A stretch of DNA of 32,000 nt from Candidatus Micrarchaeota archaeon (lineage in GTDB: Archaea; Iainarchaeota; Iainarchaeia; JAADDC01), in NCBI GenBank assembly GCA_027011045.1, contig JALVAT010000014.1, forward strand, positions 519-32,518. The letters are read 5' to 3'. Below are positions 7,136-25,538 of this stretch, piece after piece. The notes beneath the pieces were generated by a model that saw only the letters and a program-made list of their open reading frames with translations, was not told the origin of the DNA and did not search any database. The stretch's first letter is position 1, and each line of letters begins with the position of its first letter. Made by a program: the position numbers and the translations under genes.

Positions 7136-8857
7136 ATGTTCCTTCGAAGGGAGCACATCGAAATGTTGAGGGCCGTATCCGGGGGGAGCGGCGAGGCTGC
7201 CCTTGCAACGAGGGGCATCCGTTCCCGTGAACACGTTCTCGAGCTCCTCGCCGACGGCCTCCTTCAGTTCAAGCAGGGCAAAATCGAGCTGACGGAAGCG
7301 GGCAAGATTCTGCTTGACGCCTTTGCAGGGGCCGATCTATCCAAGTATCCCGACGTCATTGCCAACTCCGCGGTGATAGAGGCCCTTGAGCTCCATGAGA
7401 AAACGGGTATGATTCCCGAGGAGTGGCAGCGGTTCCTTGAGCGCAGGAATCTCTGGTCAGACGGCCCTACTGACGTTGCAAAGGCTATTCTCCGTGCATA
7501 TGAGGCTGCGCAGCCAGCACTCATTCTCACCAATGACATTGTTTCCTTCCTATTCTCCGTTCCGCGAGTGGGCCTCTACGATGATCTCGTGGACTTTGTG
7601 GACCTCGGCGGGTATTCCAAGGAGACAGTGGCGCTTCTCCAGGCCATGCGCCTCCTCAAGATCTCCCCGCCCACGGACGGTGCGTCCACGTACGTGATAA
7701 CCCCCGCTGCAAAGATACTGCTTGCAACCATGAGCGCGTTCCCCAAGGTTTACATGCAGCTTTACGTTGGTGCCGAGGAGGCAGGGGCCCTCGAAAAGGG
7801 CATTGAGCTGGCATCCCTCGTGTCCTCCGGGCTGCAGTCCGCAGGGGGCAGCATAACTGAGTACGGCCGCCAGATCCTTGCTATCTATCGCGCCCTGCGC
7901 GAGCGCCACGCTCCAGTGCCGCCAATATTCCTCGACGAGGCGGAGCACGCTGTCCTCCGCGCCATAAAGGAGATCCTGCGCATAAACAAGGATACTCCAG
8001 CCATCGTTCCAGAGTATTCTGAGATCCGCAGGCGCCTTGAGAAGATGGGTACGCCCGTGGAGCACCTTGGTGAAGTGCTTGCTCACCTTGAGTCCAAGGG
8101 CTTCGTGGAGCGCCGCGAGGAGAAGGGGAAGATCATTTACCAGCTCACAGAGTACGGTAGCAGGGCTGTGGGCTTTGGGCCGGTGAGCGTCAACGCGATG
8201 AAGGCAATTGCGTACGCCCTTGCAGGAGAGCTGCCTCTGCCCGCGTGGGTTCGCGAGGCAAGGGAATTCGGCGTTCTCGCCACGGGGATTACCGATAAGG
8301 GTGAGTTCTACGCAGAGGTAGCTAAGCACCGCACGTTCCTGCCTTTCCTCACGGGATACGACGCTGCAGTACTCCTGGCGGTCCCGCGCAAGAAGTACGT
8401 TTCCATTGACTTCGTGTATCAGCGTGTCCTTGAGCTCACAGAGGAGCCAGGAATTGAGAACTTCGAAAACGTCCTTGGGTTCTCCGAGTCCAAGGATCTC
8501 ATTCGCGTGCTGCCCAACGGAGCGGTAACCCTGACGGAGCGCGGCGACGCCGTGAAGTCCGCTGTGGAGAGCGCCAAGACGCGCGAGCTCACCCACGTCC
8601 GCGTTGCAGTGACCCCCCTCGCGTTGAGCATCTTGCGCCGCATTGTGGAGCAGTCCGAAGAGGTTACGAAGATCTGGAAGAAGGCGTACGATAAGAAGAA
8701 GGACTTCTATGAAGAGCTCGCCAAGTGGCTTGCCAAGAGCGTCAGGGCCCCAGTTGAGGACGTCATAAAGGAGCTCAAGCTGCTGCACAAGCTCGGATTC
8801 ATAGGGGAGAAGTCCGCCACGGACGCAGGAAAGCAGTTGGTGGCAGCCTACGCCTAA
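7136..8857 (+). CDS. hypothetical 573-aa protein composed of multiple degenerate winged-helix-like modules
   Basis: ATG lies 5 nt downstream of GGAGGTG (7124-7130), with an AT-rich box at 7094-7101. A recurring module ends in (L/I)T-x-x-G-x3-(L/V). Examples are HVLELLADGLLQFKQGKIELTEAGKILLDAF, HLGEVLAHLESKGFVERREEKGKIIYQLTEYGSRAV, SKDLIRVLPNGAVTLTERGDAVKSAV and VIKELKLLHKLGFIGEKSATDAGKQLVAAY. Confidence 0.8.
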   Translation: MFLRREHIEMLRAVSGGSGEAALATRGIRSREHVLELLADGLLQFKQGKIELTEAGKILLDAFAGADLSKYPDVIANSAVIEALELHEKTGMIPEEWQRFLERRNLWSDGPTDVAKAILRAYEAAQPALILTNDIVSFLFSVPRVGLYDDLVDFVDLGGYSKETVALLQAMRLLKISPPTDGASTYVITPAAKILLATMSAFPKVYMQLYVGAEEAGALEKGIELASLVSSGLQSAGGSITEYGRQILAIYRALRERHAPVPPIFLDEAEHAVLRAIKEILRINKDTPAIVPEYSEIRRRLEKMGTPVEHLGEVLAHLESKGFVERREEKGKIIYQLTEYGSRAVGFGPVSVNAMKAIAYALAGELPLPAWVREAREFGVLATGITDKGEFYAEVAKHRTFLPFLTGYDAAVLLAVPRKKYVSIDFVYQRVLELTEEPGIENFENVLGFSESKDLIRVLPNGAVTLTERGDAVKSAVESAKTRELTHVRVAVTPLALSILRRIVEQSEEVTKIWKKAYDKKKDFYEELAKWLAKSVRAPVEDVIKELKLLHKLGFIGEKSATDAGKQLVAAYA

Positions 8858-8881
8858 AAACACCCTCCCTCATTTTTTACC

Positions 8882-9322
8882 GTGAGGGGTGTTAGCGCAG
8901 TAGTCCTAGTGAGCATTCTTTTGATCTTTCTTACCGTTAGTGCTGTCGTGATGTTCTACTACGGCTCTTCCCTTGCTCTGATGCGATCACAGCAGACGGC
9001 AAACGAGGCCCTGACAGTCCAGCAAGTTTCGGGCTATGTGCGGCTTGTGTCTGCCTGGGGCGAATACAACGCAGGTAGCGGCACATCGACCATCACGATG
9101 GTCTTTTCCGTCCCTGACGACTACAACAGCGGTGTTTCATACGTCGTCCAGAGTCTCGACGGTGTTACGCTCCTTGTGGGAACGGTTCCGCCGGGGAGTT
9201 GTTCGCACCCTGTGTGTACGGTAACCGTATCCGCGCGCATTCCGAGGGGTACATATTACCTGGAGATCCCTGTACCAGCTCCCTCGCTTCAGCCCCAGAG
9301 AGTTTTCCTTTACGTGCGGTAG
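8882..9322 (+). CDS. putative archaeal type IV pilin-like / class III signal-peptide protein, 146 aa
   Basis: The N-terminus MRG|VSAVVLVSILLIFLTVSAVVMFYY has a short basic leader ending in G, followed by a hydrophobic helix of more than 20 aa, as in archaellin/pilin N-terminal domains. The remainder is Ser/Thr/Val-rich and beta-like. The GTG start and lack of a clear RBS lower confidence. Confidence 0.6.
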   Translation: MRGVSAVVLVSILLIFLTVSAVVMFYYGSSLALMRSQQTANEALTVQQVSGYVRLVSAWGEYNAGSGTSTITMVFSVPDDYNSGVSYVVQSLDGVTLLVGTVPPGSCSHPVCTVTVSARIPRGTYYLEIPVPAPSLQPQRVFLYVR

Positions 9323-12858: not shown

Positions 12859-13731
12859 ATGGGCATTCCCATAGTGCTGGACGGTGGTGCTGACGTCCCC
12901 CGTGGCGAAGAGTCCCTCATTCGAGTACCTCTTAACCTTGAAATTGCGGGGGAGCACTACGAGTACCCGGGCATCCCGAAGGAGCGGGTAATCGGCACCA
13001 TTCTGAAGAATCCCCCAGGATCCGTGAAGACGAGTCAGCCGTCTCCAAAGCAGATTATGTCGGCGATACAGGAGGTTTCCGAAGAATCGGGTTCCAGCGA
13101 GGTTCTTTACATCACCCTTTCCTCTGGTGTTTCCGGTACGTACAACGTAGCCCGTGTCGTCGCCAGGATGCTTGAAAAGAAGGGCATCACCCTCCACGTC
13201 TTTGATTCCAAGAGCGTGTCCGGTGGCATCTATCTCTTGGCGCGGCAGGCAATGGCGCTTTCAGAGTCCCGGGCGACTGCCCCAGAAATCATTTCAGCCC
13301 TGGAGCGACTGAGGGATCGCGTGCGCGTGTACTTCACCGTTCCATCTCTAAACTATCTCGTGGCCGGTGGCAGGATCGACCCCTTCCGCGCGATGGTGGC
13401 AAAGGTCTTTGGAATCCTGCCAATCATACACGTGGACGGTGACGGGAGGCTAGCCCTCTTCGCCACCGCGAAACGAAAGAAGGTCTTCTCCGAGCTGGCG
13501 GATGTGATTGCGAGGGAATCCGCCGAGGGTGAACCGGTATTCGCAGCGTACACGCCCTGCGCTGAAGGCTACGATGAACTTTTCCTCGAACAGCTTCGTT
13601 TCAGGGATATAGAGCCTGTGTGGCACGAACTTCTTTCCCCCATACTCACGGCACACGCGGGGCCCTGCGTTGCAGGTGCTGGCTTCATAGCAGGCGAAGC
13701 GGATGGCGATGCGGATGGAAGTGGACGTTGA
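12859..13731 (+). CDS. DegV family (fatty-acid-binding, FakB-like) protein, paralog 1
   Basis: DegV landmarks are VLDGGADVP, TSQPSP, ITLSSGVSGTYN, HVFDSKSVSGG and NYLVAGGRI. AATATAAC (12829-12836) is centred about 26 nt upstream of the ATG. Confidence 0.85.
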   Translation: MGIPIVLDGGADVPRGEESLIRVPLNLEIAGEHYEYPGIPKERVIGTILKNPPGSVKTSQPSPKQIMSAIQEVSEESGSSEVLYITLSSGVSGTYNVARVVARMLEKKGITLHVFDSKSVSGGIYLLARQAMALSESRATAPEIISALERLRDRVRVYFTVPSLNYLVAGGRIDPFRAMVAKVFGILPIIHVDGDGRLALFATAKRKKVFSELADVIARESAEGEPVFAAYTPCAEGYDELFLEQLRFRDIEPVWHELLSPILTAHAGPCVAGAGFIAGEADGDADGSGR

Positions 13732-19474: not shown

Positions 19475-20743
19475 GTGAGAAAAATGGAGCGGATCCGCGG
19501 CTGGGTCTGGAACGTTCGCGACATCGGAAAGCTTAAGTTCATCCTCATACGCAAGTTCCCCGAGAATCGCATCGAGCAGGTCGTCGTGAAGAAGGGTAAT
19601 GTGCCGGATGATGTCCTCGAAGCTGCCGGAAAGTATAATCCCGAAACGCTCCTTGAAATCGAGGGCGAATGGAAGGAGTCCCCCAAGGCACCCAACGGAA
19701 GGGAGTTCGTGGCGAAGAACATAACGATCATAGCAAACTCCCAGCCAACGCCCATAGATCTTACCGAGAAGACCCCTGCCGAGTTTCCCACCCGTCTCGA
19801 ATACAGGTACCTTGATCTGAGAAAACCGCGCATCGCGGCAATCTTCAAGGCAAAGGACGTCATCATCGACGCTGCCCGTGAGGTCATGCGCAAGAACGGG
19901 TTCGTGGAGGCAGCCTTCTATCCCATGATCATCGCCACGGCCACAGAGGGCGGTGCAGAGCTGTTCCCGCTCGTATACTTTGATAAGGAGGCATTCCTCG
20001 CCCAGTCTGCCCAGCTCTACAAGCAATCACTTGTTCCCGCCTTCGGCAGGGTTTTTGCCATAGCTCCATCTTTCCGGGCGGAGAAGAGCAGGACAAGGAA
20101 GCACCTAACGGAGTTCTGGCAGATCGACGCGGAGGCTGCCTTCGTGACGAAAAGGGATCTGATGGATATTCAGTTCCAGATTTACAGGCGCGCGGCAGAG
20201 CGGCTGAACGACGAGGCGGAAGAAGAGCTGAAGCTTTTGGGAATAGAAGAAGTACCCGTGCCTAAGAAGTACGAAACGATCAGCTACGAGGAGGCCATAG
20301 AGCTCCTGCAGTCCGACGGTATCGACATAAAGAAAGGGGATGACTTCGGCGCGCCAGAGGAGAGACAGCTGTGCAGCCACTTCGACGTGCCCTTCTTTGT
20401 GACGGAGTTCCCCGAGACGGAGTGCGCCTTCTACTACAAGCTCCGTGAGGATGATCCATTCTACGCGGAGAAGATGGACTTCCTCGCACCAGGGCCCAAT
20501 GGCCTCGAGCTGTCCTCTGGCGGACCAAGGGAGCACGACCCGGAGAAGCTCAAGCAGCGTATGATCGCCAAGGGAATGCGTCCCGAGTCCTTTGGATGGT
20601 ATCTGGATATGTTCCGCTACGGATTCCCGCCCCACGGTGGCTTTGGAATGGGCGTGGAGCGCCTGACCCTTGCGCTGCTCCAGCTGGACAAGATCACTGA
20701 GGCTATGCCATACCCGAGGACGCCGGATATACTTACCCCGTGA
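19475..20743 (+). CDS. class IIb aminoacyl-tRNA synthetase of the Asp/Asn family (AspRS or AsnRS, not resolvable by eye)
   Basis: The N-terminal OB anticodon-binding domain is RIRGWVWNVRDIGKLKFILIR. Core motifs are IIATATEGGAELFP, FLAQSAQLYKQ, SFRAEKSRTRKHLTEFWQIDAEAAF, LSSGGPREH, FRYGFPPHGGFGMGVERL and YPRTPDILTP. The track ORF start 19268 overlaps the divergent DHH gene. GTG 19475 (about 27 nt from TTTTTATG at 19444-19451) or ATG 19484 is preferred. Confidence 0.85.
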   Translation: MRKMERIRGWVWNVRDIGKLKFILIRKFPENRIEQVVVKKGNVPDDVLEAAGKYNPETLLEIEGEWKESPKAPNGREFVAKNITIIANSQPTPIDLTEKTPAEFPTRLEYRYLDLRKPRIAAIFKAKDVIIDAAREVMRKNGFVEAAFYPMIIATATEGGAELFPLVYFDKEAFLAQSAQLYKQSLVPAFGRVFAIAPSFRAEKSRTRKHLTEFWQIDAEAAFVTKRDLMDIQFQIYRRAAERLNDEAEEELKLLGIEEVPVPKKYETISYEEAIELLQSDGIDIKKGDDFGAPEERQLCSHFDVPFFVTEFPETECAFYYKLREDDPFYAEKMDFLAPGPNGLELSSGGPREHDPEKLKQRMIAKGMRPESFGWYLDMFRYGFPPHGGFGMGVERLTLALLQLDKITEAMPYPRTPDILTP

Positions 20744-20759
20744 GGGGGTTCGACGTTTG

Positions 20760-20783
20760 CCGGGTAGCTCCCGGTAGCTTTTT
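20760..20783 (+). terminator. short hairpin plus T-run after the AsxRS gene (the T-run overlaps the next promoter)
   Basis: CCGGG-TAGCT-CCCGG forms a 5-bp stem, followed by GTAGCTTTTT. GGTAGCT also occurs twice, 10 nt apart. Confidence 0.35.
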
Positions 20784-20786
20784 ATT
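20779..20786 (+). promoter_or_regulatory. TATA-like box (TTTTTATT) for the plsY-plsY-dak2-degV operon
   Basis: Centred about 28 nt upstream of ATG 20811, with no SD, which implies a leaderless first cistron. Confidence 0.5.
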
Positions 20787-20810
20787 CTTTAATTCCCTTC
20801 TGGAATCGCA

Positions 20811-21440
20811 ATGGGCGCAGAAACGGTTCTTTGGGGGCTTTTAGGATATCTTTCGGGTTCCCTGCCCTGGGGATACATCATTGCACGGCTCCGCGGTGTA
20901 AACATACGGGAACACGGTAGCGGGAACATAGGGGCAGCCAACGTAGCTAGAATCCTTGGTGCTCCATACGGCGTGCTTGTCGGCATCCATGACTTCCTGA
21001 AGGGTTTCATCCCCACGTACTTCGCCTTTGCACTCTATGGGCCCTTTACCGGCCTTGTCACGGGCGTTCTCGCTGTTGTTGGTGCAATATTCTCCGTTTT
21101 CCTCGGCTTTCGCGGTGGAAAGGGATTCTCCTGCGCATTCGGCGCATTTGTGGCAATGACGGTTCTCACCGGCCAGTATGGAGCCCTCGCAGCGCTGCTG
21201 ACAATCTGGTTCACCATAGTACTCCTTACTCAGATGACGGGCCTTGCAAACATCGTGACCATCGTTGCAGCGGTTCCCGTTACGGCACTGGCGGGCTCTC
21301 CCGTGCTCACGGCATACACGCTTGCCGTTGCGATCCTGGTGATGTACTCCCACAGGGATAACATAATCCTCATGCTCCAGGGCGATCTCGAGTCTCAGCG
21401 CTTAGATCACAGGGGTAAGCGCCGCATCCGCATGGGGTGA
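20811..21440 (+). CDS. plsY: PlsY-like acyl-phosphate:glycerol-phosphate acyltransferase family membrane protein, paralog 1 (209 aa)
   Basis: The protein is polytopic and hydrophobic. It carries YLSGSLPWGY (motif 1-like), GSGNIGAANV (motif 2), FLGFRGGKGF (motif 3 without the His) and the C-terminal YSHRDNIILMLQGDLE (compare H..NI.RL..G.E). Confidence 0.8.
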   Translation: MGAETVLWGLLGYLSGSLPWGYIIARLRGVNIREHGSGNIGAANVARILGAPYGVLVGIHDFLKGFIPTYFAFALYGPFTGLVTGVLAVVGAIFSVFLGFRGGKGFSCAFGAFVAMTVLTGQYGALAALLTIWFTIVLLTQMTGLANIVTIVAAVPVTALAGSPVLTAYTLAVAILVMYSHRDNIILMLQGDLESQRLDHRGKRRIRMG

Positions 21441-21444
21441 TGGC

Positions 21445-22038
21445 GTGGCCCTTACTGATACATTGCTCGCAGCGCTCATTGGATACGTCCTGGGGTCCAT
21501 CCCTTGGGCGTACATGCTTGTCCGCGCGTTCAGGGGAATTGACATCCGCACGGTGGGGAGCAAAAACGTTGGTACCCTAAATGCCTATCGCGCTACGGGC
21601 TCCAAGGCCCTTGCTTGGGCTGTGCTCTTACTCGACCTTGCCAAGGCCGTCGTAGCGTATCTCATAGCATCCGTGTGCTGCCCTGATTTCCTTTGGGTTC
21701 TTCCCATTGCAGTTGTTTTGGGTCATAACTACCCCGTGTGGTTGAAATTCAGGGGCGGGCGGGGTATCGCGGTGTTCCTTGTGCTTGCCTTGCTCTACAA
21801 CAAGGTGTTCTTCGCCGCGTGGGTGCTCCTTTGGCTCACAGGTTATCTGCTCAGCGGATACATTGCTGTTGGTGCGCTCTCCGCGCTGATCCTTGCTCCG
21901 ATAATAGCATACGTGCTTGGCACCCCCGTACTACCGATCCTCTTGGCGGAAATCCCCATTTTCCCTCGTTACGTGGAAAAGATCCGTCTCCTTATTAAGG
22001 GTGAGCTGCCCAAGCATTACTGGAGGAGTTCGGCATGA
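21445..22038 (+). CDS. PlsY-like membrane protein, divergent paralog 2 (197 aa)
   Basis: Motifs are YVLGSIPWAY, GSKNVGTLNA and VLGHNYPVWLKFRGGRGIA. GTG 21445 lies 4 nt after the paralog 1 stop and is preceded by GGGGTGA. Confidence 0.75.
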   Translation: MALTDTLLAALIGYVLGSIPWAYMLVRAFRGIDIRTVGSKNVGTLNAYRATGSKALAWAVLLLDLAKAVVAYLIASVCCPDFLWVLPIAVVLGHNYPVWLKFRGGRGIAVFLVLALLYNKVFFAAWVLLWLTGYLLSGYIAVGALSALILAPIIAYVLGTPVLPILLAEIPIFPRYVEKIRLLIKGELPKHYWRSSA

Positions 22039-22916
22039 TGGATGGCCTCCACTACAAAAAGGGCATACTCCTCGCCAGGGACCTATTAGAGCGGGAAATG
22101 GAGTTCATTAACGCTATAAACGTGTACCCCGTTGCAGATGCAGACACTGGAAGCAACATGTTCCTCACAATGGACGGGATAGCCGCTACCATACGCGACG
22201 TGGACACACGCCACTTCGGCGAGGTGGCAATGGCCGTTGCAGACGCAGCGCTCGAGCACGCCCGCGGAAACTCGGGCACGATCCTTTCGCAGTACTTCTG
22301 GGGCATTACAGAGGCGGTTGGCGATAAAGAGACGCTTGACAGGCACGACGTCGTGAACGCGCTCGTTACGGCAAAGGACTGGGCATACCAGGCAGTCTCC
22401 AATCCCGTTGAGGGTACGATCCTCACGGTGATGCGCGAAACGGCGGAAGCGGCGCAACGTCTCGCGAAGAGCATAGAGTCCGTGCCTGAACTTCTATACA
22501 AGGTGTATCAGGAGGCGCTCCGCGCCCTTGAACGCACGCCCGAGCTCCTAGCCAAGATGGGTAAGCCGAAGATCATTGATTCTGGCGCTTACGGATTTAC
22601 ACTTCTATTGGAGGGCTTCGTGAACGGTTTGGGCGTGGATGTGGCTGGATACCGTGTCCGCGGGATGCGTGCCGAACGGGAGCAGGGAAACGGCGATTCC
22701 GGGCTGTTCTGCACCACGTATATGCTCGAGCCAAGGGGTTCCGTGCTCACTGCGGACATAAGGAGGGCTATTGAGAAGTACGGTGACTCCATTGTGGTTG
22801 TGGGCGGAGGCAAGCGCGTAAAGGTCCACATTCACACGGAGGATCCCGAGGCGGTTCGGAAGGCCTTGGAACCCTACGGGGAAATCGTTCAGAAGCGTAT
22901 CGACAGGATTTGGTGA
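22035..22916 (+). CDS. Dak2/DhaL-domain protein, half-length FakA/YloV-like putative kinase subunit (293 aa)
   Basis: INAINVYPVADADTGSNMFLT is the Dak2 Mg-nucleotide signature (D.DTG.NM). RGNSGTILSQ is present. The C-terminal segment is GDSIVVVGGGKRVKVHIHTEDPEAV, as after the Dak2 domain of FakA-type proteins. The ATG overlaps the upstream stop (ATGA), and GGAGGAG lies 5 nt upstream. Confidence 0.85.
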   Translation: MMDGLHYKKGILLARDLLEREMEFINAINVYPVADADTGSNMFLTMDGIAATIRDVDTRHFGEVAMAVADAALEHARGNSGTILSQYFWGITEAVGDKETLDRHDVVNALVTAKDWAYQAVSNPVEGTILTVMRETAEAAQRLAKSIESVPELLYKVYQEALRALERTPELLAKMGKPKIIDSGAYGFTLLLEGFVNGLGVDVAGYRVRGMRAEREQGNGDSGLFCTTYMLEPRGSVLTADIRRAIEKYGDSIVVVGGGKRVKVHIHTEDPEAVRKALEPYGEIVQKRIDRIW

Positions 22917-22920
22917 TCCC

Positions 22921-23724
22921 ATGGGAAGCTTTAACATCGTCGTTGACTCCAGTGTTGACGCCGGCGACTGGCAGCCCCCCTTCGCGCCAATACACGTTTA
23001 CGCAGGCGCCGTTCACATGCTGGACAAGAAGGAGTTCACAATCGCCGAACTGAAGCGAGCACTGAACAGGGGTGCTCCACTGCGCACTTCGGCACCTTCC
23101 GTGAAGGACTGGATGAACGTGTATGAATCCATGGGCAAAGATAAACCCATCCTCGCGATTACGCTCTCAAAGCATATTAGCGCATCGTATAACAGCGCGG
23201 TTGCCGCTGCCAGGATCATGGCAAAGCGGGGCTACGACGTACGGGTTTTCGATTCCCTATCTGGAAGCGCAGCATCGGGTCTCCTCGCGCTGCGGGCGAG
23301 GGAGATGAGCGAAAGGGGAGTACCGATCGACGACGCCCTCAAGGAGCTCGAAGCACTACGGGCACGCACGGAGATCTGGCTTGTTTTGGCAGATCCCGAG
23401 GCGGCAGCAAGATCCGGCAGATTCCCCATGCTGGCAGGAAAGATCGCACGGTTTCTGCGCGTGAAGCTCGTCTTTGACGTGGAGAACGGCGTGTTTGTGA
23501 AGAAGGCTGTATTCATGGGGGACGATAGAGCAATCCTCTATCTCGCTCAGGTTGCAAAGGGAGCAGAGCAAGTGGTCGTTGGCGTTGCGGGTGAGAATCC
23601 GGCTGCAGATCGTCTGCGGGCCACCCTCCGCGTTGCGGGGATAGATGCACCCATCTGGCAGGTGGATCCCGCGCTTGCTGTGCATTTGGGCTACGGCGTT
23701 TACGGTGTTGCGCTAATAAGGTAG
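22921..23724 (+). CDS. DegV family (FakB-like lipid-binding) protein, paralog 2 (267 aa)
   Basis: Landmarks are IVVDSSVDAG, RTSAPSV (position of TSQPSP), ITLSKHISASYNSA and VFDSLSGSAASG. The ATG is preceded by GGTGATCC, complementary to the 16S 3' tail. Confidence 0.8.
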   Translation: MGSFNIVVDSSVDAGDWQPPFAPIHVYAGAVHMLDKKEFTIAELKRALNRGAPLRTSAPSVKDWMNVYESMGKDKPILAITLSKHISASYNSAVAAARIMAKRGYDVRVFDSLSGSAASGLLALRAREMSERGVPIDDALKELEALRARTEIWLVLADPEAAARSGRFPMLAGKIARFLRVKLVFDVENGVFVKKAVFMGDDRAILYLAQVAKGAEQVVVGVAGENPAADRLRATLRVAGIDAPIWQVDPALAVHLGYGVYGVALIR

Positions 23725-23813
23725 TACCTCAGGAGCGGACCTTTCGGGCACCGGACCCACACTGCCGATCTCATCATCGGTGTTTTAAACGAATTGCGAG
23801 GGAATTATAAGGT

Positions 23814-24095
23814 ATGGGCATTACCAGAGAGGAGCTTCTTCACGTTGCCAAGATTGCGAGAATTGAACTGAGCGAACAGGAAATCGAAGAACTTCTTCCA
23901 CAGTTTAACGAGATCCTTTCTCTTCTGGAGCGCGTCAAAAGCTTGCCACTTTCCGATGAAACAACCATAAAGACCACGGAAAACATGGATGAGTTTCGGG
24001 AGGATCGCGTGGCACCCTTTGAGGATCCGGATGCCATCGTGGAACAGTTTCCCCGCAGAGAAGGGCGGCTTGCGAAGGTTCCGCGCAACCTGTGA
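23814..24095 (+). CDS. gatC: Asp-tRNA(Asn)/Glu-tRNA(Gln) amidotransferase subunit C
   Basis: ITREELLHVAKIARIELSEQEIEELLPQFNEILSLLERV is the canonical GatC pattern. TTTTAAAC (23783-23790) is centred about 27 nt upstream of the ATG. Confidence 0.9.
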   Translation: MGITREELLHVAKIARIELSEQEIEELLPQFNEILSLLERVKSLPLSDETTIKTTENMDEFREDRVAPFEDPDAIVEQFPRREGRLAKVPRNL

Positions 24096-24104
24096 GGCGA
24101 TACT

Positions 24105-25538
24105 ATGGTAGAAACGACCTACACGGAGGAACTCATCCACAGGCTCAAGACGGGCGAGATAAGCCCTGAAGAGCACCTCGAAGAAAAGCTAGACACCATA
24201 CGGTCTAGGGACTCCGAGCTCAATGCATTTATAACGGTAACAGAGGAACTTGCTCGTAAACTCACCCAGAAAGCAGCAGAAGCGATAAAAGAGGGGCATG
24301 GTGAGCTCTTTTACGGGCTTATTTGGGGTATTAAGGACAACTTCGCCCTGAAGGGCGTCCGCATGACCTGCGGATCCAAGATGCTCGAACACTACGTACC
24401 GCCGTACACTGCCACGCCTGTGGAGCGCATACTGGAGAATAACGGCGTTATCGTGGGCAAGCTCAACATGGACGAGTTCGCCTGTGGATCCTCCGGTGAA
24501 ACGTCCTACTTTGGGCCAACTCGGAACGCCCGCGATCCCGAGCGCGTTCCAGGCGGTTCGTCCTCCGGGGCTGGTGCGGCTGTGGCAGCGGAGCTCGTGG
24601 ATCTGGCCCTTGGATCTGATACTGGCGGATCCATTAGGAATCCCGCGAGCTTCAACGGCGTCGTGGGCCTGAAGCCAACGTACTCGCTCGTCTCGCGTTA
24701 CGGTCTTGCAGACCTCGCCATGAGCCTCGACGTTCCCGGTCCCCTCGCGCAGGACGCCTTCGGCATTGCCCTAGCAATGGAGGCGATTCAGGGCTACGAT
24801 TCAAGGGATCGCGTAACGGCGCACCGTAGACTGCCATTCCTCGATAGTTTGGACAGCTTCGATCCAGATCGCACGCGTATCGGATTCACGGAAGCACTCT
24901 TGGATGGCGTGGAGCCAGCCGTTAGAAAGGCAACCCTGCACGTGCTCAAATTCTTCGAATCCAAGGGTACCGAGATCGTAGAGGTTGAACTGCCCGATAT
25001 ATGGGCTGCATTCCCCACATACTACCTTGTAATGTACCCCGAATTTGCCTCCGCCATGCAGAAGTTCGACGGTCTGAAGTACGGACACAGGGTGGACGGC
25101 CAGACGCTGTACGATACCGTTGCTCGCAGCAGGGCGGAGGGCTTCGGCAAGGAGATCAAGCGCCGCATTATCATGGGCACATACATCTCAATGGCGGAGC
25201 ACGCAGGAAAGTGGTACACCCTTGCCCTAAAGGCAAGGAGCATGATCCAGCGCAGCTTCCAGAGGGCCCTTGAGCGTGCGGACTTCCTCCTATTCCCCAC
25301 TGTACCCGTTCTACCGTTCAAGCTAGGGGAGCGCATAAATGACCCGGTTCAGATGTACATGGCGGATGCCCTGACAGTTCCCGCAAACCTCACGGGGATG
25401 CCCGCGATCTCGTTCCCTGGCGGGTGGAAGGATCACTTGCCCATTGGCGTGCAGCTCCTTGGAAATCACTTCCAGGATCATTTCATCGTATCTGCGGTGC
25501 GTTTCTTTGAGAAGGAGGGTAGGCCGTGGTCCGAATAG
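24105..25538 (+). CDS. gatA: Asp-tRNA(Asn)/Glu-tRNA(Gln) amidotransferase subunit A
   Basis: The amidase signature is GGSSSGAGAAVA...GSDTGGSIRNPASFNGVVGLKPTY. IKDNF and the 477-aa length also fit. Confidence 0.95.
   Translation: MVETTYTEELIHRLKTGEISPEEHLEEKLDTIRSRDSELNAFITVTEELARKLTQKAAEAIKEGHGELFYGLIWGIKDNFALKGVRMTCGSKMLEHYVPPYTATPVERILENNGVIVGKLNMDEFACGSSGETSYFGPTRNARDPERVPGGSSSGAGAAVAAELVDLALGSDTGGSIRNPASFNGVVGLKPTYSLVSRYGLADLAMSLDVPGPLAQDAFGIALAMEAIQGYDSRDRVTAHRRLPFLDSLDSFDPDRTRIGFTEALLDGVEPAVRKATLHVLKFFESKGTEIVEVELPDIWAAFPTYYLVMYPEFASAMQKFDGLKYGHRVDGQTLYDTVARSRAEGFGKEIKRRIIMGTYISMAEHAGKWYTLALKARSMIQRSFQRALERADFLLFPTVPVLPFKLGERINDPVQMYMADALTVPANLTGMPAISFPGGWKDHLPIGVQLLGNHFQDHFIVSAVRFFEKEGRPWSE

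Follow-up and report, generated by a model that had tools for sequence, protein, structure and literature searches.

The fatty acid kinase (Fak) pathway of Firmicutes, known from Staphylococcus aureus, Streptococcus suis and Bacillus subtilis, involves a Dak2-type kinase (FakA), a DegV-type carrier (FakB) and an acyl-phosphate-dependent acyltransferase of the PlsY family, and FakAB plus PlsY is an established pathway that has been reconstituted. A single FakA is commonly accompanied in bacteria by several FakBs, which differ in chain preference (PMC10146087). FakA itself has three domains: the kinase domain, of DhaL type, is N-terminal, the middle domain mediates dimerisation and holds a Cys/His/His zinc site, and FakB docks on the C-terminal domain, which has an EDD fold (PMC9136124, PMC10848957, PMC11617999). 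Here, a stretch of 32,000 nucleotides from the Candidatus Micrarchaeota archaeon assembly GCA_027011045.1 (contig JALVAT010000014.1, positions 519 to 32,518; the whole stretch is hereafter called the window) was analysed and found to carry a four-gene operon in which two PlsY-family genes (PlsY-A and PlsY-B) are followed by a short FakA gene and by a DegV-family gene.

A characterised acyltransferase of the family is that of Aquifex aeolicus (PDB 5XJ5-5XJ9; Li et al. 2017, PMC5700162), in which backbone amides in the GGKG loop hold the acyl-phosphate together with no more than two side chains, those of T41 and H92, while the phosphate of glycerol-3-phosphate (G3P) is held by S35, R45, K104 and N180 and its 2-OH by S142 and H177 (PMC5700162). 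PlsY and PlsC homologues occur in DPANN, Asgard and Marine Group II/III archaea, where they have been read as bacteria-to-archaea transfers (Coleman et al. 2019, PMC6431249, which also cites Villanueva et al. 2017 for such homologues in archaea); an initial annotation of this DNA had likewise mentioned archaeal PlsY homologues from phylogenomic surveys. Unlike the present analysis, these surveys treated PlsY gene by gene. A 2026 paper discusses Asgard plsY and plsC without naming the source of acyl-phosphate, and a study of bacteria of the candidate phyla radiation (CPR) explicitly pointed out that, where PlsY occurs without PlsX, there is no explanation of where the acyl-phosphate comes from (PMC7242380). 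Searches of the full-text literature, the coverage of which is incomplete, gave no description of an archaeal linkage between FakA/DegV and PlsY, of an acyl-phosphate source for the archaeal PlsYs, of paired PlsY subtypes or of a natural FakA devoid of its C-terminal domain.

When compared to the Firmicute pathway, the window operon has the same three types of components, with the Mg site and the Cys/His/His zinc site of the kinase and the Thr/Ser/Arg/His network of the carrier all conserved. The pathway logic is therefore familiar, whereas the archaeal host, the gathering of all parts in one operon, the kinase without C-terminal domain and the two non-canonical PlsY subtypes set the locus apart. 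Family membership, folds, conservation of the kinase and carrier residues, gene order and the existence of two PlsY subtypes are established below. We consider it likely that the operon serves to activate free fatty acids, whether scavenged or recycled, independently of acyl carrier protein (ACP) and coenzyme A (CoA), and to esterify them to an acceptor of the glycerol-phosphate type in the membrane of the archaeon.

Layout, gene order and host of the operon

The four genes are co-directional and tightly packed between 20811 and 23724, and their coordinates were checked against the sequence. They are listed here together with the associated signals.

20811-21440, + strand: ORF1, PlsY-A, 209 aa, ATG start, first gene of the operon
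21445-22038, + strand: ORF2, PlsY-B, 197 aa, GTG start, 4 nt after the ORF1 stop
22035-22916, + strand: ORF3, short FakA, 293 aa, with an ATG that overlaps the ORF2 stop as ATGA at 22035-22038
22921-23724, + strand: ORF4, DegV/FakB-like, 267 aa, 4 nt after the ORF3 stop
20779-20786, + strand: TATA-like box TTTTTATT, read from the sequence, at -32 to -25 from the ORF1 ATG
21434-21440: Shine-Dalgarno-like string GGGGTGA, before ORF2
22022-22028: Shine-Dalgarno-like string GGAGGAG, before ORF3
22912-22919: Shine-Dalgarno-like string GGTGATCC, before ORF4

All spacings, including the ATGA overlap, agree with those of the initial annotation, and the Shine-Dalgarno matches of the three internal cistrons and the TATA-like box of the first one lie where they had been placed. 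We take the three internal strings to match the complement of the 3' end of archaeal 16S rRNA. The start of ORF2 differs between public assemblies, with GTG at 21445 in one and TTG at 21463 (191 aa) in the other. In four relatives (L003, L083, L087 and L089), a TTTTTAT(A/T) or TTTTATA box precedes the first PlsY gene with similar spacing and, because a similar box recurs in these, TTTTTATT is the probable promoter of a leaderless or near-leaderless operon transcript. A small hairpin (GCCGAU...AUCGGU followed by GUUUU) that occurs at 23764-23786, between the DegV stop and the GatC start, could mark the end of the operon, but its folding energy is no better than that of shuffled sequence (z = 0.83). 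No Rfam match was found in 20000-24500.

The families had been assigned initially on motifs only (GSGNIGAANV, FRGGKG, GHNYPVWLKFRGGRG, HRDNI and ADADTGSNM, all of which are present). Profile hidden Markov models (HMM) uphold these assignments, as do alignments with experimentally solved structures and two structure models of high confidence. In profile searches, PlsY, Dak2 and DegV families were all matched with scores far beyond chance. PlsY-A and PlsY-B reach 136.2 bits (E 1e-39) and 129.3 bits (E 2e-37) with PF02660 (cutoff 24.1), over profile positions 1-161 of 164. ORF3 matches the Dak2 profile PF02734 (134.1 bits, E 6e-39) and the FakA-like_M profile PF21645 (58.9 bits, E 4e-16), and ORF4 matches the DegV profile PF02645 (130.1 bits, E 1e-37; cutoff 27) and TIGR00762 (137 bits; cutoff 99.7). 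No public names are recorded for the window's own proteins; the public annotation of relatives already reads "acyl phosphate:glycerol-3-phosphate acyltransferase" and "DAK2 domain-containing protein".

Four relatives with FakA proteins that are 50-68% identical (L003, L083, L085 and L087) keep the order PlsY-A, PlsY-B, short FakA and DegV, and the flanks differ from those of the window on both sides in L085 and on the downstream side in L083. In a Nanoarchaeota contig (L091, 3878-8273), PlsY-A and PlsY-B are followed by a full-length FakA (505 aa, C-terminal domain present) and by DegV, and this operon divergently adjoins a CarS-like gene (135.5 bits; the cutoff for CDP-archaeol synthase, CDP standing for cytidine diphosphate, is 148) and a CDP-alcohol phosphatidyltransferase gene. 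The four-gene order is hence kept across several DPANN lineages in varied flanks, which backs the view, put forward in the initial annotation, of a self-contained kinase-binder-acyltransferase module.

Two further genes were seen near these operons. In L083, a 56%-identical relative, a gene of the GDSL lipase/esterase family (8392-9054, - strand) lies ca. 700 bp downstream of the operon; it has no NCBIfam match and, judging from its family, could release fatty acids from foreign lipids. In L091, an alpha/beta hydrolase gene is located ca. 3.6 kb further upstream of the first PlsY gene.

Related clusters also exist beyond DPANN. A short FakA (313-330 aa), a DegV and a single PlsY are encoded in a row in three contigs of Asgard genomes (Heimdallarchaeota / Promethearchaeati) and in one metagenome contig that is Asgard-like. 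These FakA-DegV-PlsY clusters are located as follows.

L010, 5893-8642: Asgard cluster
L019, 5893-8675: Asgard cluster
L035, 5941-8634: Asgard cluster
L116, 2194-4884: Asgard-like cluster, metagenome

Their PlsY has near-canonical residues (T41S) and scores above the TIGR00023 cutoff (153.6 bits for that of L010). On one contig with a cluster of this type, genes for EMG1/NEP1 and HerA are present as well, which fits an origin from archaea. A further cluster occurs in a CPR Saccharibacteria contig (L046, 5971-9060), in which a FakA (542 aa) and a DegV are next to a very divergent PlsY-family gene (PF02660, 74.6 bits) with most key residues altered. It is comparable to the window operon in that kinase, carrier and PlsY-family genes are adjacent in an ultra-small, presumably lipid-scavenging organism, and differs from it in being bacterial and in having a full-length FakA and only one PlsY. 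In rough neighbour-joining trees, the L046 PlsY groups with B-type PlsYs and the L046 FakA stands beside that of Nanoarchaeota, next to the clade of short DPANN FakAs; as support values are lacking and long-branch attraction is likely, these trees are taken as hints only. In several bacterial loci plsY comes right after fakA, and most of the ca. 150 sampled FakA loci have no plsY in the fetched flanks (5-6 kb). These loci were retrieved by short peptide patterns, with at most 80 loci per scan, so that adjacency frequencies are indicative only. In the metagenome scan, one close locus was obtained (L095); the others have a FakA of only 30-39% identity and those inspected look bacterial, apart from the Asgard-like L116.

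The window lies within a 109-kb ENA contig and, as described initially for the histone, TFB, Hef, Gar1, methionine adenosyltransferase and RuBisCO genes, the flanks of the operon are archaeal: they encode histone, TFB, a Hef-type helicase/ERCC4 nuclease, Gar1, S8e, an archaeal S-adenosylmethionine synthase, GatCAB and a RuBisCO large subunit. Host taxonomy was deduced from the nearest named homologues, which are "Candidatus Diapherotrites archaeon" proteins, and most likely places the host among the Iainarchaeota, within DPANN. The nearest species-level genome, with 67% identity, is a metagenome-assembled genome (MAG) of Candidatus Iainarchaeum; a Micrarchaeota MAG comes second, with 50%.

Members of all four families are typically found in bacteria and the nearest non-DPANN homologues are bacterial (35-40% identity), as would be expected if bacterial DNA had been misjoined to an archaeal contig during assembly or binning, or if the operon had been transferred very recently and had no archaeal role. 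Such an origin is effectively refuted. An independent Logan assembly (8.9 kb) contains the same proteins and identical junctions, with the aspartyl-tRNA synthetase (AspRS) gene upstream and GatC downstream, and the AspRS-operon-GatC junctions also occur in relatives of only 57% identity. GC is flat, at 0.55-0.58 through the operon and both flanks, and promoter and Shine-Dalgarno signals are of archaeal type. Finally, the DPANN proteins group apart from the bacterial matches: for PlsY-B, E-values drop from ca. 1e-41 to 1e-29, and for FakA from 1e-63 to 1e-48. A chimeric assembly at the operon borders can thus be excluded.

Two other genes of this contig were recorded. An isopentenyl phosphate kinase gene (L094, 1029-1829; NF040647, 165.9 bits, cutoff 120) occurs ca. 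9 kb before window position 1. The organism therefore has at least one archaeal mevalonate-pathway enzyme, which suggests that it can make isoprenoid precursors itself; it may thus produce isoprenoid lipids of its own in addition to any acyl lipids. At 7136-8857 of the window (+ strand), between the Hef-type helicase/nuclease gene and the S8e/Gar1/TFB genes, a 573-aa protein is encoded that matches DUF505 (300.9 bits) and, faintly, winged-helix profiles.

A FakA-type protein without C-terminal domain and its presumed carriers

ORF3 ends at residue 293, directly after the middle domain, and no match was found to PF13684, the C-terminal EDD-fold domain involved in FakB docking. The initial annotation had stated that bacterial FakA is about twice as long and has an extra DegV-like C-terminal domain, and this is indeed the case (PMC9136124, PMC10146087). 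In an alignment of 22 short homologues, the Mg-binding residues D35 and D37 (ADADTGSN) and C226, H265 and H267 are invariant; the last three correspond to C240, H282 and H284 of S. aureus FakA, and the HIH motif aligns to HVH in S. suis FakA. In S. aureus, these three residues bind zinc (PMC11617999) and their mutation brings activity down ca. 100-fold (PMC9136124).

The AlphaFold2 (AF2) model of ORF3 has a mean predicted local distance difference test value (pLDDT) of 90.1. Among PDB entries, S. suis FakA is matched best (7w7h; 307-315 aligned columns, E 3e-21), and TMt is 0.90 with S. aureus FakA_N (root-mean-square deviation, rmsd, 1.7-2.3 A) and ca. 0.9 with the N domain of Thermus FakA. 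The next-best structural match is E. coli DhaL (TMt 0.83). In the DhaK/DhaL(/DhaM) systems, too, a nucleotide domain of DhaL/Dak2 type works with a partner of EDD fold that binds the substrate, but ORF3 has a FakA-specific middle domain, its presumed partner is DegV and not DhaK, and its neighbours are PlsY genes; it scores 278 bits with FakA/YloV models versus 36 bits with DhaL.

The domain content of ORF3 equals that of FakA_NL, an S. aureus FakA engineered to lack the C-terminal domain (Subramanian et al. 2022, PMC9136124). FakA_NL is an artificial truncation, whereas ORF3 is natural, conserved and has counterparts in Asgard archaea and in some bacteria. The engineered protein is active, with a Km for FakB that rises 11-fold, from 0.09 to 0.99 uM (PMC9136124), so that the chemistry does not require the C-terminal domain. 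By analogy, it is plausible that ORF3, a natural FakA_NL, would be a working kinase. The short form is not an archaeal invention, the same N-terminal plus middle architecture being found next to DegV in two bacterial contigs (L175 and L176) and in the Asgard contigs, and the C-domain-less kinase represents a wider natural class that is apparently undescribed. In the two bacterial contigs (L175, 4019-5942; L176, 4120-5930), DegV is followed by a FakA of 309-313 aa that has the N-terminal and middle domains only, and L176 also carries EF-P, FabF and a solute-binding protein gene. Two unusual architectures met among the homologues were set aside. One (P0016, 400 aa) is an apparent in-frame fusion of PlsY and FakA_NL in which the PlsY-B part has no motif-1 region, pointing to a deletion or a gene-calling artefact, and the other (P0037, 449 aa) contains an exact internal repeat of ca. 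100 Dak2 residues and looks like an artefact rather than a real architecture.

Turning to the carrier, T56, S87, R167 and H255 of ORF4 align with the carboxylate network of S. aureus FakB1 (T62, S95, R173 and H270), and this Thr/Ser/Arg/His network is kept in most orthologues from the DPANN, Asgard and bacterial clusters. From these residues, ORF4 is presumed to be the fatty-acid carrier presented to the kinase. It has a Met in place of the Arg that docks on the FakA C-terminal domain (R205 in S. aureus FakB1, R202 in S. suis FakB2). Loss of this Arg was compared with loss of the FakA C-terminal domain and no clean pattern of co-variation was found, several relatives with a short FakA having kept the Arg. 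The idea that ORF4 would be a split-off FakA C-terminal domain was also discarded: its DegV match reaches 130 bits with no PF13684 match, its carboxylate network is kept, and in L091 an orthologue coexists with a full-length FakA.

A further DegV-family gene occurs in the window, outside the operon and 7 kb upstream.

12859-13731, + strand: second DegV-family gene, 290 aa; PF02645 161.7 bits, TIGR00762 170.3 bits

Its product has the full Thr/Ser/Arg/His network and a faint FakA-like_C match, and it is possibly another FakB-type carrier for the operon kinase, comparable to the situation in bacteria with more than one FakB. The end of this gene overlaps the start of a Peptidase_M24 gene.

Two conserved PlsY subtypes

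The two acyltransferase genes encode clearly distinct proteins. In phmmer comparisons to 5xj5, PlsY-A is matched with E 3e-31 (residues 9-191) and PlsY-B with E 3.6e-20; identity to Aquifex PlsY is 39% and 32%, respectively, and only 27% between the two. They are not recent duplicates, since each is closer to bacterial PlsYs than to the other. As for Aquifex PlsY, to which both align over their full length, the AF2 model of PlsY-B (pLDDT 94.2) has the same seven-helix membrane fold: its only significant PDB matches are 5xj5-5xj8, with TM-scores of 0.76-0.80 (ca. 0.79) and an rmsd of 2.6-3.2 A. When residues at positions 35, 37, 41, 42, 45, 92, 104, 142, 177 and 180 (Aquifex numbering) are read as a signature, three types can be defined.

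Canonical bacterial PlsY: SNTNRHK[SGA]HN, in bacterial matches
PlsY-A: SNANRAKNHN, in ca. 27 related protein clusters
PlsY-B: SNLNRHR[AT]YK, in 11 of the 11 close clusters

Based on these signatures, PlsY-A and PlsY-B are two distinct conserved subtypes and are not redundant. Both have kept S35, N37, N42, R45 and the GGxG loop that forms the backbone phosphate hole. In the G3P pocket (positions 35, 45, 104, 180, 142 and 177), PlsY-A has S, R, K, N, N and H, which essentially keeps the pocket, and PlsY-B has S, R, R, K, A and Y, which does not. PlsY-A has lost both side chains of the donor site, T41 and H92 being replaced by Ala (T41A, H92A), and has the additional change S142N, while PlsY-B has undergone T41L, K104R, S142A, H177Y and N180K and keeps H92 at the donor site. 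Several of these substitutions cut the activity of Aquifex PlsY to 0.03-25% of wild type: mutants retain 4.75% for T41A, 17.5% for H92A, 25% for K104R and 0.03% for H177Y (PMC5700162, Table 2), the last being the worst substitution tested at that site (PMC5700162). N180A, another change at the position of N180K, leaves 4.6%.

Could one of the two proteins, most likely PlsY-B, have no catalytic role and act as a scaffold, as a membrane receptor that would bind the complex of DegV or short FakA and so replace the FakA C-terminal domain, or as a regulator? The severity of H177Y in Aquifex would fit this, and so would the complementary nature of the substitutions, with A keeping the acceptor site and B keeping H92 of the donor site; in addition, the start/stop overlaps at the A/B and B/FakA junctions, in the window and in relatives, are compatible with a co-translated complex. 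We nevertheless hold this to be improbable. The PlsY-B signature is strictly conserved, including S35, N37, N42, R45, H92, R104, Y177 and K180, which is the pattern of a working site; Aquifex PlsY is monomeric and its active site is self-contained; and a B-type PlsY stands alone with FakA and DegV in one relative (L089), where it appears sufficient. As to a receptor that would take over from the C-terminal domain, the Nanoarchaeota operon has both PlsYs even though its FakA keeps that domain. Because its polar pocket residues are strictly conserved and because L089 has B alone, we would argue that PlsY-B is no dead copy and that it works as an enzyme, on a changed acceptor or with a changed pose of binding.

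A second alternative retains the chemistry and changes the lipid. The carboxylate would then be non-standard (phytanic or another isoprenoid acid, or a hydroxy acid), or the acceptor would be other than G3P, namely glycerol-1-phosphate (G1P) only, an ether lysolipid such as geranylgeranylglyceryl phosphate, or lysophosphatidate, leading to hybrid or unusual lipids. In support of this, the acceptor pocket of PlsY-B is consistently remodelled (K104R, S142A, H177Y, N180K) at positions that include the His177 and Ser142 contacts to the glycerol 2-OH in Aquifex, PlsY-A is without both side chains that contact the acyl-phosphate, the archaeal host has at least one mevalonate-pathway enzyme, and the operon of L091 adjoins a CarS-like gene, CarS being the archaeal CDP-archaeol synthase family. 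However, the carboxylate network of DegV and the residues of the kinase do not depart from what ordinary fatty-acid kinases have, and nothing in the sequence identifies the type of chain. T41A together with H92 occurs in 17 of 120 matches that are otherwise canonical PlsYs, hence T41A alone is tolerated in nature. Moreover, S35 and R45 are kept in both PlsYs and a positive charge is kept at positions 104 and 180 of PlsY-B, so that a phosphorylated glycerol-type acceptor is the simplest guess. On balance a different lipid seems rather unlikely for the operon as a whole. The altered-substrate reading already offered in the initial annotation may still hold at least for PlsY-B, because the PlsY subtypes carry substitutions at residues important in Aquifex PlsY.

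Other departures from the canonical signature were seen among the collected proteins, such as a small PlsY group with L41, E/D45, R104 and P/I180 (proteins among P0132-P0240) and PlsY-like genes of Kosmotogaceae near fakA with T35, S/A45 and N177 (L008, 8531-9172; L017, 2923-3543). Judged by such residues, the PlsY family may comprise several uncharacterised specificities.

The proposed route and its bearing on archaeal membranes

For the substrates, the products and the physical coupling between the proteins, we infer the following route. DegV (ORF4, possibly joined by the second DegV at 12859-13731) would take up a fatty acid and hold its carboxylate in the Thr/Ser/Arg/His network. The short FakA (ORF3), probably as a zinc-stabilised dimer formed via the middle domain, would transfer the gamma-phosphate of ATP-Mg to this carboxylate, giving acyl-phosphate, which the PlsY-family membrane enzymes would then consume. 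PlsY-A, with its intact glycerol-phosphate pocket, would most likely make 1-acyl-glycerol-phosphate, on either G3P or G1P, and PlsY-B, with its remodelled pocket, would most likely use a different acceptor or a different pose; options for the latter are a second acylation (PlsC-like, with acyl-phosphate), an archaeal lysolipid, or a strictly G1P-oriented pose. Since both G1P and G3P serve bacterial PlsY as acceptors in vitro (PMC13400652), the backbone could be of either stereoisomer in an archaeon.

Several observations weigh against this route. Firstly, the window proteins fall short of the family models that define function: TIGR00023 (cutoff 137.2) gives 136.0 bits for PlsY-A, just under the cutoff, and 110.3 bits for PlsY-B; ORF3 reaches 181 bits with FakA_VfrB (cutoff 975) and 278.5 bits with YloV (cutoff 396.1), the latter match spanning only positions 7-291 of the 530 in the model, in keeping with the absence of a C-terminal domain; and ORF4 reaches 68 bits with the FakB1 equivalog of NCBIfam (cutoff 350). 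Secondly, ORF3 has no docking domain and, in S. suis, mutations at the C-domain interface abolish activity. Thirdly, both PlsYs depart from Aquifex PlsY at positions for which mutants of that enzyme have been assayed. Fourthly, the linkage between PlsY, FakA and DegV is strong and not absolute. In L089 (44% identity), a single PlsY of B type, FakA and DegV come directly after a ribosomal-protein/RpoD cluster and, in the metagenome relative L095 (205-3472; 65% identical), FakA is directly followed by GatC and GatA with no DegV in between, so that the carrier must be encoded elsewhere or be absent. The linkage has not been lost overall, its order being kept in several lineages, and the exceptions concern DegV in L095 and PlsY-A in L089. 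Lastly, because of the isopentenyl phosphate kinase encoded on the same contig, the organism may have a membrane that does not depend on fatty acids.

A bolder extension of the proposed route, which we regard as tentative and on the whole doubtful, is that this DPANN lineage would build ester-linked acyl or hybrid ether/ester glycerophospholipids from scavenged fatty acids, with acyl-phosphate as the sole activated donor. PlsY-A would acylate G1P or G3P, and PlsY-B would carry out a second transfer from acyl-phosphate, of a kind not described so far, for which the recipient would be either the lysolipid (in a PlsC-like step that needs neither ACP nor CoA) or an ether lysolipid of archaeal type. 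CarS-type CDP activation of the product and head-group attachment would follow, as hinted by the gene neighbourhood of the Nanoarchaeota contig; this neighbourhood, a single locus, hints at a complete route from salvage to phospholipid that includes both of these steps.

Whether fatty-acid ester phospholipids are made by any archaeon is a question central to the "lipid divide" and to models for the origin of eukaryotic membranes, and the operon offers a test case for bacterial-style ester lipids in archaea. For PlsY and PlsC of DPANN and Asgard archaea, in which PlsX and ACP are not evident, the source of acyl-phosphate is the missing step; the window operon and the Asgard FakA-DegV-PlsY clusters would supply it in a compact and cloneable gene set. 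Because bacterial PlsY accepts G1P, the archaeon would not even need G3P. DPANN cells are thought to take lipids from other cells and a fatty-acid salvage route, if true, would change the view of DPANN membranes and of their possible hosts. The two PlsY subtypes, one of them with a substitution that almost eliminates activity in Aquifex PlsY, further suggest that this family, itself a target for antibacterials, includes a substrate specificity not yet characterised.

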